Shown: piece after piece, positions 8,400 through 15,328 of the stretch
Position numbering within the stretch: the first letter of the stretch is position 1
Layout: the number at the start of each line of letters is the position of its first letter
Sequence record: NZ_CP083859.1
Source: a plasmid
DNA length: 64,000 nucleotides
Reading direction: 5' to 3' (one strand)
Notes under the pieces: model-generated
The model's database searches: none
Told to the model about the DNA's origin: nothing
Seen by the model: the letters and a program-made list of their open reading frames with translations, nothing else
Position numbers and translations under genes: made by a program

Positions 8400-8890
8400 G
8401 TAAATTCACTACAAACGCGCCTGAGCGCTCTCCTGAAGGGATTTAACACCTGTCCGAAATAAACATGCCAGAACGGTATACGGTATTAACATGCCGCTCT
8501 TTACTAACCCTTTAAAACATCACACCCCACGCAAGACTTCGTCTTGCAGATTTTTCCTTTCATTTCAGTGGGATGTTTGTAAGAAATTTGCGCGCTTTTG
8601 GAATGTGACCGTTTAATGTCGTACATACCGACACTACACTATCGTATAATCCTGATACCTGTTAGTGTCGGTATGTCACACATGTATCATACAATTGTAG
8701 ATATGCTTTAATTACATTGAATTATATATCGCACAGTGTCACACTATCGCACATCATAGTGCTGGATTGTACTACTGTATAGAACAGAAATGCACAGCAG
8801 TATCAACCCATTACAGCCTTGCACAGCAATGTGGAAATCCACCAACAGGCCATACATAGTGTCGGTTCCGACACTAACTTAAAACAGGTA
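8400..8890. other. oriT: F-like oriT region (nic site, TraM-binding inverted repeats, traM promoters)
   Basis: The reverse complement of 8505-8536 reads GCGTGGGGTGT/GATGTTTTAAAGGG, against the F nic GCGTGGGGTGT/GGTGCTTTTGG. That puts nic near 8521/8522 on the minus strand. Inverted repeats ATACCGACACT/AGTGTCGGTAT (8627-8675) and AGTGTCGGTTCCGACACT (8860-8878) are TraM-site-like. The region is AT-rich and non-coding between gene X and traM. Confidence 0.75.
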
Positions 8891-8896
8891 AGAAAT

Positions 8897-9292
8897 ATGG
8901 GAAGAGTCGGCATCTACCTTAAAGATAAAATTGAACGCGAAGTTCGCGATATTGTTCAACAAGACCTGCAGAACGGCGCTAATGCTGGAGAAGCAAACAT
9001 ATCAGCTACCTGCAACGAATTAATCCGGCTTGGACTGCTTGTTTATAAACGCGATGGCGAGGATGGCAATCAATTTGATATCGAAGGATATCGAAGAGAC
9101 CTCATAAGAAAAGCAGCCGGCTCACGCGAAGGCACAGTTCTCATTGCCACCCTAATCGCTGAGATGTATTTAAAAATGACAGGAAAAGACGGCGAAGGCA
9201 GCCTTGAAGATACGCTTGATATGATTTTAAGCGGCATAAACACAGCCGAGAACGAAGCAGAAGCAAGGCACTTCATCAACGAAAAAGAATAA
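8897..9292 (+). CDS. traM: TraM (relaxosome accessory protein)
   Basis: 131 aa starting MGRVGIYLKDKIEREVRDIV, an RHH-like N-terminus, found immediately after oriT. The tool ORF 8819-9292 has an upstream extension. Confidence 0.85.
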   Translation: MGRVGIYLKDKIEREVRDIVQQDLQNGANAGEANISATCNELIRLGLLVYKRDGEDGNQFDIEGYRRDLIRKAAGSREGTVLIATLIAEMYLKMTGKDGEGSLEDTLDMILSGINTAENEAEARHFINEKE

Positions 9293-9324
9293 ATCTGTGA
9301 GCCGGACACCCCGGCCCACATCGA

Positions 9325-9981
9325 TCACAGGGACGGTTTTTCATCCCAGGGAAGGTCACTTTTCTCCACCTCCTTTATTTTTTCTTTCAGGAACACCTCG
9401 AACTCCATGCAAAGAACTTTAAGCGCCTGCACATCCTCATTCTGGTCAAGTAACCTTTCCGTAAAATAACCCAGCGTATTCATCAGACGGGTGAGCATTT
9501 CATCATTCAGACTACGGTTATGCACCTTCGCCATTGCCCTGATTTCATCTGCAAGGTTTTCAGGAATTCGCATGCTATATCCGGTTGCTTTCCCCGGAAG
9601 CAAAACTCTTTCACCCTCACGCCACATCCACAATTGCTCCTGCTTGGGCGAGGATTTAATTTCTCCAGCATCATCAAGAGATTCACCATCAAGTAATTGC
9701 CCTAGCCACTCTTCAAATCTCACCGCCAGAGCAATGAGCCGCTCACCCTCCGCAGTTTTAATGACAGGCTTGCCGGGCTGATAATTCAGCGACAACAAAA
9801 GCCTGGCAATAATTTCCTCATTCACACTTCTGTTGCCAGCTCTGGCACATATTCTCAGCTCCATAAGCAGATTATCCGGTGCACGCAATCGCCACTCCAC
9901 CGCCTCACCTGGCTGGAACTTGCGTGGACGGCCGCGACCATCCCACATTTTTTCTTTTACTTTCATAGCTATAGATCCCAT
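9325..9981 (-). CDS. Tandem ribbon-helix-helix (Arc/MetJ, TraY-like) DNA-binding protein, encoded antisense between traM and traA
   Basis: 218-aa ORF with a GGAG ribosome-binding site. It has two RHH units carrying the TraY-type NRS motif (VEWRLRAPDNLLMELRICARAGNRSVNEEIIARLLLSL and YSMRIPENLADEIRAMAKVHNRSLNDEMLTRLMNTL). No plus-strand traJ or traY ORF exists in 9293-10162. Confidence 0.6.
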   Translation of the reverse strand: MGSIAMKVKEKMWDGRGRPRKFQPGEAVEWRLRAPDNLLMELRICARAGNRSVNEEIIARLLLSLNYQPGKPVIKTAEGERLIALAVRFEEWLGQLLDGESLDDAGEIKSSPKQEQLWMWREGERVLLPGKATGYSMRIPENLADEIRAMAKVHNRSLNDEMLTRLMNTLGYFTERLLDQNEDVQALKVLCMEFEVFLKEKIKEVEKSDLPWDEKPSL

Positions 9982-10162
9982 AGACCATCTCCGAACTTAC
10001 TGGTCAACAAAGCCTACCCACTTACATATTCGGATAAATCTGAATGGTTCCAAAAAGTGTGACATGCGTCACAGTTTTTTTTTTTTAGGGTCATGGGACA
10101 ATTGCGCCCGCGTAAACAAGCACTTACGCGATTCACTTTTGTTTACTTCGGAGAAAACAAAC

Positions 10163-10516
10163 ATGTTAACCAAAGGCAGTGCCCTTAACGTCGGTAAGGG
10201 ATGGGCGGTAGCGTCTTTATTCCGCAAAGCACGCGAAAATCGCCAGGCTAAATTTTACTTAAAGTCAGCAGGCGCTTTTTTAATTGCACTTATGGTCACT
10301 CACCCGGCATTCGCATCTGGTACCGACCTTCTTTCCTCGCAGAACGCCACGGTTAATTCCACCTTCGGCTCCGGCTCATCACTGGTTAAATGGTTCTATA
10401 TCGCCGAAATCATCATGGGCCTGTTTATTTACATTAAGGCCCGCTCACTACTGGTATTCGTCGGTATCGTTATGGCAATCATCTTTACCCGTGTCGCCTT
10501 CGGTATCGCGAGCTAA
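10163..10516 (+). CDS. traA: TraA propilin
   Basis: 117 aa with a long leader plus pilin core (NATVNSTFGSGSSLVKWFYIAEIIMGLFIYI..), homologous to F TraA (TVKATFGKDSSVVKWVVLAEVLVG). Confidence 0.85.
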   Translation: MLTKGSALNVGKGWAVASLFRKARENRQAKFYLKSAGAFLIALMVTHPAFASGTDLLSSQNATVNSTFGSGSSLVKWFYIAEIIMGLFIYIKARSLLVFVGIVMAIIFTRVAFGIAS

Positions 10517-11421: not shown

Positions 11422-12162
11422 ATGAAATTTCGCATTTCACCGGCAGCTGCTGCTGTGTTTCTGGCAGCGGGATTATTTACCAGCGGCCTCCGGGCCGCTT
11501 CCTCACCCGCAGCCATTCCGTTTGAGAACGACGCCGCCTTTAACGTCACTCTCAGCAACACCAACCCGAGTAAGGTTGTTGTAGACGGAGAACTCATTAC
11601 CAGCATCAGCGGACCAACCGGTGCGTATGACCAGAGCCAGACCGAGGACGGAGCGCTTATTTTGTCTCCGCTTGTTGGCCAGAACTTCACCCTGTTTATC
11701 CAGACTGACCACGGTTCATCGCTGAGCCTGAACGTCAGGCCGCAGCCGGGTAACGGCAAAACACTGCGCTTCACCCCGATGTCACCACCACTTCGCAAGA
11801 ACGACGATGCGAAGGCATGGGAAGAAGGGCAGACCTATGAAAAAACGCTGGTTGCGCTATCCCGCGCCGCAGTCAATGGCCAGGTGCCGGACGACTACCG
11901 GGAATACCCGGTCAGCCGCATGCCGGCTTACACACCCGCCAGTGATGTACGCCTGACGCCTGAACGCCAGTTTGTGGGCAACCACCTGCGGGTTGTTCGC
12001 TTCCGGATGAGCAACCCGGGCAGCATCACCCGCAGCCTCCGCGAGCGCGATTTCTGGCGCAAGGGCGTCCGGGCCGTAATGCTGTCGCAGAATCAGCTCT
12101 ACGCTGGCGGTGAGGGCTATGCCTGGATTGTGTTTTCAGATGACGGAGACGCCCGCTCATGA
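11422..12162 (+). CDS. traK: TraK (secretin-like)
   Basis: 246 aa with a signal peptide, found between traE and traB. Confidence 0.8.
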   Translation: MKFRISPAAAAVFLAAGLFTSGLRAASSPAAIPFENDAAFNVTLSNTNPSKVVVDGELITSISGPTGAYDQSQTEDGALILSPLVGQNFTLFIQTDHGSSLSLNVRPQPGNGKTLRFTPMSPPLRKNDDAKAWEEGQTYEKTLVALSRAAVNGQVPDDYREYPVSRMPAYTPASDVRLTPERQFVGNHLRVVRFRMSNPGSITRSLRERDFWRKGVRAVMLSQNQLYAGGEGYAWIVFSDDGDARS

Positions 12163-12635
12163 CCATCAGCCTGAATGAAAACCTGAAAACCCGCCGCAAG
12201 CAACTGGCCATCCTGGCCGCCGTCATCATTGGCGGCGCAGCTGCAGCAGGCGGCGTAATGTGGTACGGGCAATACCAGCAAAAACAAAAGCAACCCGCAC
12301 CGGTTGCAACACCAAACCTGACCGGCGTTGTGACCGCGACGTTTAACGAACAGGTCAACGATGCCGCGCTGACACAGCAGCAGGCAAAGACCTCCGCTCT
12401 TGAGCAAAACCTTGCCACGCTTGCTCAGCAGTTCGCGCAGAACAAGCTCACAACCGAGCAGAAGCTGGCCGAGAAGGACGCTGAAATACAGCGCTTGAAT
12501 GACCAGCTAACGAAAGCCCCCGGCAGCAACCAGACCACTGGCCAGCAGACACCACCTGTTGGCCAGAACGGAACACCACTCCCCGGTCCCGTTGCTGGCG
12601 GTCAGGCCCGGCCACCCGAATACACCGTAAAGTGA
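12159..12635 (+). pseudogene. traB: traB truncated after codon 158 (intact TraB is about 475 aa)
   Basis: The N-terminal TM and coiled-coil region is TraB-like (KRKQLAILAAVIIGGAAAAGG). The ORF then stops (…PPEYTVK*), and no TraB continuation exists in any frame before traD'. Confidence 0.8.
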
Positions 12636-12639
12636 GCTG

Positions 12640-12876
12640 ATGTTAGCGAGGGCTTATATGAATGTATTTGGTTCACTTCCTGAGGGGCAGGGAATGACCA
12701 TCATTGCTGGCTGGGCTGGCTATGAATTCACTCTATATGGTCTGGAGCCCCAGGAGTGGCATTCACCGGTTTATAAGGATGTGGCCTCCTCAGTCCGTTC
12801 TGTGGCTGCATACATTAATGCACAGGACTGGGAGGACGGATGTCAGCAGGCCAGATATGAACTGAGTCTGATGTAA
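12640..12876 (+). CDS. orphan 78-aa ORF at the tra deletion junction (possibly a 3' remnant of a lost gene)
   Basis: Open frame only. Not recognisable as TraT or TraS. Lies 116 bp upstream of traD'. Confidence 0.3.
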   Translation: MLARAYMNVFGSLPEGQGMTIIAGWAGYEFTLYGLEPQEWHSPVYKDVASSVRSVAAYINAQDWEDGCQQARYELSLM

Positions 12877-12991
12877 TAACCCGACGTTTTCCCACTCGCG
12901 CTATCACGTAATTCATCACCCTTTTCAACGTTTCTCCCCTGATAACACACATCACCGAACAGGTGATGCAATAACGGCCGGACAACACTCT

Positions 12992-13642
12992 ATGAGCTTC
13001 GCAGGAAAAAACCTCACTCAGGGCGGGCAGATGACCGCCTACCGCTGGCGCATGTTCATTCAGGTGAACAACTGGATAGGATTCTGGATCTTCATCCTGT
13101 TCGCCGTGCTAACTACCGCCATTTTTCTCTGGCGAATTCCACAGGAAGCCCTTGATAACGGCTCCCTGTGGTGGTTTGCCAGCATCAACAGCAGTTTTAT
13201 CGATCTGATGCCGGCAACGGGGACGCCAAAAATTTACGACGTCCACTACTGGTATGCGCCAACCGCGACGATGATGGTGCTCAAAATGACCCTGCCGCAG
13301 ATCTATACCGACCTGTATATGCAGGAGATGGGCAACCAGTGCCTGACTGAGCTGCAGTGGGCGGCCGGCGCCAGCGGGTTGTTCAGTATGGTGGTGTTTA
13401 TCGCCGTGACATGGTTTATCGCCAGTATCGGCAGAAAGGAAAGTGAAGATGAATACATTTCCGGGATGCAGCTGACTGATAAGCCAGCTGAAGTGAACAA
13501 GCTCCTGCGTAAAAACGGTGAGTTCTCTGACCTGCGCGTGGGTGATCTGCATATGGTCAGGATGGCGGAGGTACTCAACTTCCTGATGCATGGCACTATC
13601 GGGGTGGGGAAGTCGACGCTGATACGCTGGTTGCAGAGCTGA
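12992..13642 (+). pseudogene. traD: traD 5' fragment (N-terminal 216 codons through the Walker A motif)
   Basis: MSFAGKNLTQGGQMTAYRWRMF..GMQLTDKPAEVNKLLRK..HGTIGVGKSTLIRWL matches F TraD through GTVGAGKSEVIRRL. It then terminates at the TGA at 13640-13642. Confidence 0.8.
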
Positions 13643-13651
13643 GCGGAGGCA

Positions 13652-15328
13652 GTGAAAACGTCACCGGAGGCGCGGTCCCGTACGCTCATCATTGCGCAGC
13701 TGAACGCCGACCGTAAGGCGATAAATGCTGGCATTCATGCCGCGCTGGCAGCGCGGGGAGAACTGGGGGAGAAGGCTATTAAGGTGCCGGTGCTCGATAA
13801 AATCACCCATACGCGCCATGAGTTCAATAAAACAGAGTCCTGGGAAGCCGGGATGGTGGTTAAACGCGGTGACCGCTACCAGGATGTGGTAGCCGTTGAC
13901 CGTAACGGCAGCACGGTGACGGTACGTGATGAGGAGGGGAAGATTGCTCTGGTTTCACCGAAGGAGCTGATCACCGGTGACGTGCAGCTGTTTCGCCGCA
14001 GCGAGATGGAAGTCCGTTCCGGCGATCTGCTTAAGTTCACGGCGACCGATCGCGAACAGGGGCAGATGGCCAACCAGCGCTATACGGTGGAGTCGGTCAG
14101 CGAGGAGGGGAATATCCGTCTGAAGGGGGAGAACGGTCGCGTCACCATCAATCCTGAGAAGGTCCGGGCGCAGCAGAATCTCGACTACGGCTGGGCCGTC
14201 ACCGGCTACGGCGCACAGGGGGCCAGCAGTGATTATGTCATTGCGCTTGAGGGCACGAAAGACGGACGTAAGGCACTGGCTTCCCGTCGTGCCTTCTACA
14301 TTTCAGCCTCACGCGTCAAGGAGCACGTCCAGATTTACACCGACAAGAAAGCGGACTGGGTTAAGGCGGTAAAAACGCCGGAGCGTGATATCAAAACGGC
14401 GCACGATGCGCTGGCACCAGAAACGCAGCGCAAACAGGCGAAAGCCATCTGGGCAATGGGGCAGCCGGTGAATAAAACGGCCATCGGTCGCGCCTGGGTG
14501 CGCCATCAGGGCATGCAGGATGCGTCACTGACGGCAAAAATCATCCCGGCCACCCGGCGCTTTCCTGAACCGGCGCTGGCGCTGCCGGTGTATGACAACA
14601 ATGGCAGGAGTGCGGGCCTGGCCATGGTTTCCCTGGTTGCCAGCCCGGAAGGGCGGATGACACAGGGGGAGACCCGGATGGTCATGACAGAACGTGCCCG
14701 TGGTGCGGTACTGCAGCGAAGCCAGTCAGGCAACACGATTGTGGCCAGTGACCTGGCGGCCGCGCTTGATGCAGTACGACATCACCCGAAGGACGGCGTG
14801 GTCTGGCAGACCGGCGATGAACCGCCTTCAGCATGGTTGCTTAAGGTGAGCGGTGGGACAAAACAGGATGTGTCGCCGGGTATTGTCTCCACGCTGACTG
14901 ACGAGCAGAACGTACAGCAACTGCGCGAACAGATGCTGGCAGACCAGATTCGCAATGAAGACGCCGGACGGAACAGGCAGCCGGAGTCGTTGCTGCCGGA
15001 AATTCCGCAGGAAGAGGTGATCAGACTGAAACCGGAAGACATTAACCCGCGTAAACCGGAACCACTCACCCCGGATGCAGATGTAATCGCCAGGGTGAGA
15101 GGTGAGGAAAACACCGGTGGACAGGAAATGAAAGCTGCTGCAGGTGTCAGGAGTGAGCTGGAAGGTGCTGACAAGGCATCCGGTGAACAGTCGCGGGCAT
15201 CGCGTGTGATTGCAGATCTGGCAAACGCTGAGCGCGACATGCTCAGGGTGGCAGAAAATACTGAACGCGGCCGCATGCCGGAGCGTGAAGAACAGACCCT
15301 CACCCGTACCATTCAGAAAGAACGCTAA
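13652..15328 (+). pseudogene. traI: traI 3' fragment (C-terminal domain of the TraI relaxase-helicase, about 558 codons)
   Basis: VTGYGAQGASSDYVIALEGTKDGRKALA..YISASRVKEHVQIYTDKKADW aligns with F TraI ITAHGAQGASETFAIALEGTEGNRKLMA..YVALSRMKQHVQVYTD. It is in the same frame as traD' and separated from it only by a TGA. The relaxase and helicase domains are absent. Confidence 0.8.

Follow-up and report, generated by a model that had tools for sequence, protein, structure and literature searches.

A predicted tandem ribbon-helix-helix regulator of the EntFR family between traM and traA of a group D F-like plasmid

In the Enterobacter cloacae complex, F-like plasmids of group D are common vehicles of genes for resistance and stress tolerance. 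In "Five shades of F," Fernandez-Lopez et al. (2016; PMC5102898) assigned the F-like plasmids of Enterobacter and its relatives to MOBF12 group D, with pENT01 as the prototype. The group was characterised as negative for FinO and TraJ, and as having a conserved DNA-binding protein at the traJ locus (PMC5102898). This protein was named EntFR, a Phyre2 model showed it as a double ribbon-helix-helix (RHH), and it was suggested to be functionally homologous to TraY, or perhaps to TraJ (PMC5102898). A full-text literature search for "EntFR" returned this paper, a purely computational study, as the sole match, and a broader literature search found no later work on group D regulation.

Several other systems are close enough for comparison. 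TraY of F (PF05509; 9f0x chains E-G) is a single-chain RHH dimer (PMC12117103); like EntFR, it carries two RHH units in one chain, and its gene is a neighbour of traA in an F-type transfer region. EntFR differs from it in being ~80 aa longer, in having an arm and a helix with each unit, and in being encoded on the opposite strand, outside the operon; significant sequence or profile similarity between the two proteins is missing. Arc, Mnt, and AmrZ (PF03869; 1arq, 3qoq) share the RHH signature with EntFR, including RS(V/L/M)N.E, and AmrZ also has an N-terminal arm ahead of its RHH and a helical extension behind it. These three are dimerising single-RHH chains, whereas EntFR consists of two fused units, like the engineered single-chain Arc (1u9p).

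In Pseudomonas aeruginosa, the Arc-like RHH protein TprA forms a triad with NdpA2 and the H-NS-like MvaT and controls expression of the pil2 pilus operon as well as transfer of the integrative and conjugative element (ICE) PAPI-1 (PMC8565334). TprA thus resembles EntFR as an Arc-like RHH protein of a conjugative element, one that controls the pilus and transfer genes of that element; however, it has ~80 aa and a single RHH, it belongs to a type IVb pilus system, and its RHH similarity to EntFR is weak. TraJ of F-like group A plasmids is found at the same genomic position as EntFR, which may likewise act as a plasmid-specific switch for the tra promoter. The two differ in that TraJ has an unrelated fold and no similarity to EntFR, and group D is without FinP/FinO control.

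An EntFR orthologue in the traJ/traY slot

The window, which is the whole 64-kb stretch of plasmid DNA analysed here, contains the following features around this slot:

8897..9292, plus strand: traM, encoding a relaxosome protein (Pfam Tra_M, E=7e-11)
9296..9320, no strand assigned: GC-rich hairpin between the convergent stops of traM and entFR (terminator scan, folding)
9325..9981, minus strand: entFR, a 218-aa ORF of 657 nt with an ATG start; probable start at ATG 9966, giving 213 aa
10163..10516, plus strand: traA, encoding the F-type pilin, first gene of the tra operon (Pfam TraA)

The end of traM at 9292 and the start of traA at 10163 leave 870 bp between the two genes. Both genes also matched NCBI family models at scores below the respective cut-offs: traM matched the NCBIfam TraM model with E=7e-12 (45.7 bits; cut-off 104), and traA matched the TraA pilin model TIGR02758 with 60.3 bits (cut-off 76.55). 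An earlier sequence-only reading of this DNA had described the 870-bp gap, the minus-strand ORF of 218 aa, and the protein motifs AGNRSVNEE, HNRSLNDE, and GRGRPRK; all are exactly as it gave them, and the gene does converge on traM and diverge from traA. Within the entFR family, MKVKEK (Met6, at 9966) is an invariant N-terminus, and PGAP calls the 213-aa form in plasmid record CP123378.1, which is 100% identical here. EntFR probably has 213 aa, since MKVKEK is the start in most gene calls and in every diverged homologue. Folding of the hairpin at 9296-9320 yielded -19.7 kcal/mol for the minus strand, where a U-rich tail is present, and -14.7 kcal/mol for the plus strand, which has no U tract; the hairpin resembles a terminator for entFR.

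Using TBLASTN, we aligned the protein to that of pENTE01 (NC_009425.1) with 78.6% identity and 99% coverage. The pENTE01 counterpart lies between traM and traA and is annotated as "Arc family DNA-binding protein." Judged by this similarity, the gene in the window is an orthologue of entFR, already named and described and not new. No essential difference separates it from EntFR of pENTE01 (PMC5102898): the family, locus, orientation, and double-RHH prediction are the same, and TraJ is lacking in both plasmids, as is FinO in the tra region of pENTE01. The sequence-only reading had given, as a finding that would refute it, that the arrangement is standard in a well-studied plasmid family; it is indeed the standard one of MOBF12 group D, for which the protein was named in 2016 (PMC5102898). 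The analysis confirms EntFR in a regulatory slot and adds no new element. Beyond the published picture, it describes the repeat module of 105 aa, the invariance of the RGRPRK arm, the conservation of the CRP box, and the truncated tra operon beside this copy; the new details are that the arm is AT-hook-like, that F TraY is the best though weak structural match, and that the CRP-consensus box is invariant and followed by a T-run.

At this locus, a 2.3-kb segment shares 100% identity with plasmid CP123378.1 of Enterobacter ludwigii (IncFIB/IncFII); PLSDB has it in 208 records, including 161 from Enterobacter. TBLASTN identified EntFR, down to 40% identity, in 247 PLSDB records (161 given as Enterobacter); the matches are nearly always annotated as "Arc family DNA-binding protein," and a large protein collection holds 189 clusters of homologues. 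The gene order traM> <gene traA> was present in all 10 group-D loci inspected, pENTE01 of Enterobacter sp. 638 among these, and extends to Kosakonia, Cronobacter, Atlantibacter, E. coli, Klebsiella sp., Rahnella, Pantoea, and Phytobacter. This layout is kept down to 40% protein identity. In genome scans, it should be read as a group D signature and not as an anomaly.

The window holds traM and traA, L, E, and K, without similarity to TraJ or TraY. When F TraJ and F TraY (from NC_002483) were aligned to the whole 64-kb window by TBLASTN with word size 2, the best match had only E=0.27, in agreement with the sequence-only reading that traJ and traY are absent. In the complete tra region of pENTE01, traJ, traY, and finO are all missing. 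The tra operon of the window is a deletion remnant, with entFR and its control region intact. Beyond traK, it contains the following:

after traK, at the position of traB in pENTE01: 158-aa ORF (no Pfam match)
12992-13642: N-terminal fragment of TraD
13652-15328: C-terminal third of TraI
downstream of the TraI fragment: DsbA-like gene, the one that follows traI in pENTE01

PLSDB typing lists the identical plasmid as non-mobilizable. An H-NS family protein is also encoded on the plasmid.

Domain structure of EntFR and its relation to TraY

Five segments were delimited in the protein, numbered here by the 218-aa ORF:

9919..9939, minus strand: AT-hook-like basic arm GRGRPRK, aa 15-21
9790..9903, minus strand: RHH unit 1, aa 27-64 (strand, helix A, helix B; Arc 25.5 bits; AlphaFold2)
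9688..9753, minus strand: helix following RHH unit 1, aa 77-98 (low-confidence AlphaFold2 helix)
9475..9585, minus strand: RHH unit 2, aa 133-169 (Arc 31.2 bits; AlphaFold2; aligns to AmrZ and Arc)
9361..9438, minus strand: C-terminal helix, aa 182-207 (AlphaFold2, pLDDT 50-62)

Pfam Arc (PF03869) matched EntFR in two stretches, with E=7e-14 and 51.8 bits for the whole protein. When the halves were searched separately, the N-terminal half scored 25.5 bits and the C-terminal half 31.2 bits, both above the gathering cut-off of 20.4. Self-alignment of EntFR paired aa 9-93 with aa 114-198 at 33% identity (E=4e-16). EntFR is a tandem duplication of a module of ~105 aa in which an Arc-type RHH is flanked by a basic arm on its N-terminal side and a helix on its C-terminal side. 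Within the arm, RGRPRK is unchanged across the 24 close and the 8 diverged homologues; the Pfam AT_hook model (PF02178) matched the Pantoea homologue alone, at a sub-threshold 13.3 bits (cut-off 17.4).

An AlphaFold2 model computed with 24 close homologues as input had a mean pLDDT of 57.9, which is low overall confidence, and showed the pattern strand-helix-helix-helix twice, with the RHH cores at pLDDT 71-81. RHH unit 1 was predicted as a strand at aa 27-34 and helices at aa 36-48 and 53-64 (pLDDT 71-79), and RHH unit 2 as a strand at aa 133-140 and helices at aa 141-153 and 158-169 (pLDDT 75-81). In the internal repeat, the helix behind the first unit aligns with the helix behind the second. 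The tandem RHH put forward by the sequence-only reading is thus borne out by the Arc scores of both halves, by the internal repeat, and by the predicted secondary structure. By analogy with AmrZ and Mnt, the C-terminal helix possibly has a role in oligomerisation; because the model is modest, we make no claim about oligomerisation geometry.

The NRS motif in each unit had been read as TraY-type. It is the helix-B cap common to RHH proteins generally, and the longer string in EntFR, RS(V/L)N(E/D)E, matches RSVNSE of Arc and RSMNSE of AmrZ in profile alignments. A search of PDB sequences with the EntFR family profile identified AmrZ (3qoq, E=4.9e-4) and Arc. Among NCBIfam models, that of TprA (NF052309) matched with E=0.003 and 18 bits against a cut-off of 150, within the RHH.

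The sequence-only reading had suggested an inverted, expanded traY that took over regulation of traM and the traA promoter. If entFR descended from traY, the gene would have been inverted and enlarged while keeping both jobs of TraY, as relaxosome accessory factor at oriT and as promoter activator. The single-chain tandem-RHH design and the slot are indeed the same as for F TraY, and neither the window nor pENTE01 offers another TraY candidate. In a Foldseek search of the PDB, the best matches to the EntFR model were the chains of F TraY in a relaxosome structure (9f0x_E, E=8.5e-3, target TM 0.57-0.66), and behind them came an engineered, permuted version of Arc in a single chain (1u9p) and AvtR (4hv0); we checked 9f0x_E, and this chain is TraY, from the F relaxosome cryo-EM structures of 2025. 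However, all of these matches are weak (E of 8.5e-3 or weaker) and start from a low-confidence model. At the sequence level, the Pantoea homologue matched Pfam TraY (PF05509) at a sub-threshold 16.2 bits (E=0.012; cut-off 21.3), whereas the window protein did not match this model at E<=10, with F TraY scoring 130 bits as the control and both halves of EntFR being Arc-positive. BLASTP of EntFR against F TraY gave a nonsignificant E=0.43, and hhalign of the family profile against F TraY gave a probability of 0.13%. The repeat unit has ~105 aa, with extra arms and helices that are missing from TraY. As for position, traY would be expected to open the tra operon and to share a strand with traA; entFR is on the opposite strand in 10 of the 10 group-D plasmids inspected. 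An unannotated gap of ~500 bp between entFR and traM in Pantoea was searched for a hidden traY-like gene and held just short, unconvincing ORFs.

Descent from traY is improbable on this evidence. EntFR probably has a TraY-like architecture, in which one chain would form a full RHH dimer, and its sequence places it in the Arc/AmrZ branch. The other option of the sequence-only reading, an RHH regulator recruited into the slot, is the better fit. Overall, the interpretation in that reading is partly supported, with entFR as a recruited Arc-type tandem-RHH gene whose sequence has no detectable homology to traY. The structural parallel with F TraY offers a question that can be tested in a nicking assay.

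The divergent control region and a proposed mechanism

We aligned the spacer between entFR and traA from nine plasmids with EntFR identities of 40-100%. The region contains the following features:

9982..10162, no strand assigned: divergent entFR/traA control region (conserved blocks in a diverged spacer, 9-plasmid alignment)
10058..10073, no strand assigned: CRP-consensus palindrome TGTGA-N6-TCACA, TGTGACATGCGTCACA (perfect match)
10075..10086, plus strand: T12 run (conserved, after the palindrome)
10097..10102, plus strand: candidate -10 hexamer GACAAT of the traA promoter (on conservation only)
10109..10130, plus strand: inverted repeat CGCGTAA-N8-TTACGCG in the traA leader (alignment, folding)
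10112..10161, no strand assigned: three G(T/A)AAACAA(G/A) repeats (direct, inverted, direct), candidate operators

Counted from the probable start at 9966, the control region comprises 196 bp. The CRP-consensus palindrome is the single match in 64 kb, with 0.02 expected. GTGA-N6-TCAC is invariant in nine of nine aligned plasmids and the N6 spacer varies; the pattern across the nine is (T/C)GTGA-N6-TCACAG, then a run of 11-13 T. Box and T-run occur once in each group-D locus fetched, 79-83 nt upstream of the traA start codon in every one, and they are absent from F. Scanning of the entFR/traA intergenic region for a sigma-70 consensus promoter found no site. A10098 and T10102 are invariant in nine of nine plasmids and fit positions 2 and 6 of a -10 element, which makes GACAAT at 10097-10102 a candidate for the traA -10.

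The residues of the DNA-reading beta-strands of EntFR fall into two clades, with VEWRLRAP and GYSMRIP in one and QYRKLWLP and AFSSSFP in the other. Because these strands differ between clades and the box is invariant, we infer that the palindrome is read by a conserved host protein, most simply CRP. That the palindrome is EntFR's own operator is less likely, as the beta-strand residues are clade-specific and the palindrome is unchanged. In F, conjugation requires crp (PMC7762799), and the same paper cites action of CRP at the traJ promoter of pRK100 (its reference 17). Alternatively, the palindrome and T-run, which fold as a terminator-like hairpin (-11.3 kcal/mol, z = -2.8), could be an intrinsic terminator that halts plus-strand read-through; this could coexist with a CRP role.

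Closer to traA, the inverted repeat CGCGTAA-N8-TTACGCG shows, in its pENTE01 version, a single compensatory change from C-G to T-A and a single G.U pair (by eye). Three of the seven matches to G(T/A)AAACAA(G/A) in the window lie within 50 bp, with 2.15 expected per 64 kb for a pattern that was chosen post hoc. In the same place in the distant clade, TTACG occurs two or three times with a spacing of 10 bp (by eye). The TTACG / GTAAACAA repeats and the inverted repeat in the traA leader are the best candidates for EntFR sites. The targets for experiments are thereby narrowed to the 196-bp region, the invariant CRP box, and the candidate operator repeats.

Overall, the best explanation, and one we regard as probable, is an EntFR orthologue in the traJ/traY slot that is predicted to regulate the divergent control region together with CRP. 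The two RHH units would pair within the chain into one pseudo-dimeric DNA-reading head, as modelled on F TraY, and the RGRPRK arm would add minor-groove contacts in AT-rich DNA. EntFR would bind the 196-bp control region and so set transcription of the tra operon, and it would regulate its own gene from the same region. Host CRP, bound to the TGTGA-N6-TCACA box ~43 bp upstream of where traA transcription is likely to start, would work alongside EntFR. The domain make-up, duplication, conservation, and synteny of EntFR are observed directly; its pairing, its binding sites, the direction of its regulation, and the involvement of CRP are what we infer. By analogy with TraJ, TraY, or TprA, we lean slightly toward EntFR acting as an activator or anti-silencer, because of the TprA precedent and the H-NS family protein on the plasmid.

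A possible relaxosome function and remaining alternatives

Upstream of traM, the window contains an oriT:

8521..8547, no strand assigned: oriT nick core CACACCCCACGCAA (8521-8534), followed by inverted repeat GCAAGACTTCGTCTTGC (shared with F)

The 14-nt nick core is identical to that of the F oriT and was found in 11 of 13 fetched loci. Nine of ten group-D plasmids have it, and the core in Kosakonia is one base off. The nick position within 8521-8534 is presumably that of F, from which we take it. Palindromes also lie upstream of traM, TAGTGTCGG..CCGACACTA in the window and of the CAGTGCCGGA type elsewhere; since they covary with the traM allele, they are probably TraM sites.

A second job for EntFR as a TraY-like relaxosome accessory factor at oriT would be compatible with regulation of the control region, and it is plausible because other TraY candidates are missing from these plasmids; functionally, TraY is defined by binding to oriT beside the IHF site and by stimulation of TraI nicking. 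In F, three TraY molecules in a train lie 61-90 bp from the nick (PMC12117103); the group-D sequence at that position is poorly conserved. We also compared oriT with the entFR/traA spacer of six plasmids in search of a common motif, and shared 9-mers were at chance level. With this region poorly conserved and a shared motif missing, a relaxosome role is neither favoured nor disfavoured. One candidate for a shared site, a 26-nt similarity between 8547-8572 and 10017-10042, is not kept in relatives and was rejected. A bolder version has EntFR doing the work of both TraJ and TraY, as a single-chain Arc-type RHH with an AT-hook arm that switches on the tra operon from a cAMP-CRP-dependent divergent promoter and also loads the relaxase at oriT. 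We hold this version only tentatively, as possible but well short of likely; if it were true, conjugation of group D plasmids would be linked directly to carbon status, with no antisense control by FinOP.

The opposite restriction, that EntFR is a relaxosome accessory protein only, aiding nicking by TraI at oriT with no role in transcription, strikes us as unlikely, to about the same degree as descent from traY. It draws on the need of F-like relaxosomes for an RHH accessory factor besides TraM (PMC12117103) and on a nick core so nearly identical to that of F that a TraY-like partner would be expected. However, a gene that diverges from an operon across a conserved control region has the usual layout of an autoregulated transcription factor, and the findings just described for the TraY-train region and for shared motifs argue against this restriction as well. 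In addition, entFR is intact in plasmids without a relaxase, including this one, although this is weak evidence.

We consider it very improbable that EntFR has nothing to do with transfer and serves as an RHH antitoxin or plasmid-stability protein. Homologues are labelled "plasmid stability protein" in some source databases, and EntFR matched FitA-like RHH antitoxins just under the threshold (26.0 bits; cut-off 27), but an adjacent toxin gene is missing and, down to 40% identity, no plasmid inspected has the gene anywhere but between traM and traA.

Least credible of all, and practically dismissed, is a spurious minus-strand ORF that hides a damaged plus-strand traJ or traY: overlapping plus-strand ORFs of up to 96 aa are present, but the entFR ORF is intact in about 245 plasmids, similarity to TraJ or TraY is missing in every frame, and the substitution pattern by codon position fits the minus frame only. 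The sequence-only reading had stated that the gap holds no plus-strand ORF, which needs correction, as ORFs of 41, 58, and 96 aa overlap there; their stop-free lengths vary in relatives, and we rejected them as genes and regard them as antisense shadows. It had also allowed for a better-supported plus-strand traJ/traY frame, and the codon pattern speaks against one. Based on an alignment of seven diverged homologues, 48%, 32%, and 87% of the columns at minus-frame codon positions 1, 2, and 3, respectively, are variable; it is the minus frame, that of entFR, on which selection acts, and the gene is real.

CRP-consensus box and leader repeats upstream of traA

The spacer between traA and entFR, the minus-strand gene for the tandem RHH protein EntFR, contains two sets of sequence elements.

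10058-10086: CRP-consensus palindrome TGTGACATGCGTCACA, a perfect match to the consensus, followed by the T12 run (10075-10086, plus strand)
within 10109-10161: traA leader, with inverted repeat CGCGTAA-N8-TTACGCG, plus three copies of the repeat G(T/A)AAACAA(G/A)

The palindrome occurs once within the window. Across all group D plasmids inspected (MOBF12 F-like plasmids of the Enterobacter type), the CRP box and T12 run are invariant, and the box lies 79-83 nt from the traA start. Together, the palindrome and T12 run could also serve as a terminator hairpin. In the prototype group D plasmid pENTE01 (NC_009425), the leader inverted repeat carries a single compensatory change together with one G.U pair; these sequence differences give as much of a hint of an RNA hairpin as of an operator.

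An IS630 element was observed in the Klebsiella sp. WP3 plasmid (locus L009, 21-1046), approximately 350 bp past the CRP box, on the control region's traA side. The gene table for this plasmid, which is incomplete, has no traA entry for that stretch. Both the CRP box and entFR are still intact beside the element.

oriT, probable TraM sites and the traM/entFR junction

8521-8547: oriT nick core CACACCCCACGCAA, then inverted repeat GCAAGACTTCGTCTTGC
8616-8683 and 8857-8878: palindromes based on TAGTGTCGG / CCGACACTA, upstream of traM
9296-9320: single GC-rich hairpin, filling the 32-bp gap that separates the stop codons of traM and entFR, two convergent genes

The nick core is identical to that of the plasmid F oriT; plasmid F carries its own inverted repeat, of different sequence, at the position of GCAAGACTTCGTCTTGC. 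In relatives whose traM N-terminus is different, a CAGTGCCGGA type replaces the palindrome motif. Because the motif switches with the traM N-terminus, the palindromes probably bind TraM and vary in step with it.

The junction hairpin has a U-rich tail on the entFR strand only; transcription from traM might therefore continue past it, antisense to entFR, as far as the T12 run at 10075. Whereas entFR and traM are 32-39 bp apart in the Enterobacter clade, ~500 bp of unannotated DNA separates them in the Pantoea (L005 3134-3640) and Phytobacter (L006 3128-3670) plasmids, and all ORFs within this gap are short and unconvincing.

Remnant tra operon and accessory genes

The tra operon at 12159-15328 is a remnant left by deletion. 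A 158-aa ORF occupies the traB position of pENTE01; after it come an N-terminal piece of TraD and only the C-terminal third of TraI, and the relaxase domain is absent from this remnant. In agreement with the missing domain, the identical Enterobacter ludwigii plasmid CP123378.1 is typed as "non-mobilizable."

In the annotation of CP123378.1, the stretch at 74863-111637, which is expected to continue the window, includes a heat-resistance island (clpK, sHSP20, yfdX, kefB-GI and psiE-GI), a ter operon for tellurite resistance and an H-NS family gene carried on the plasmid.
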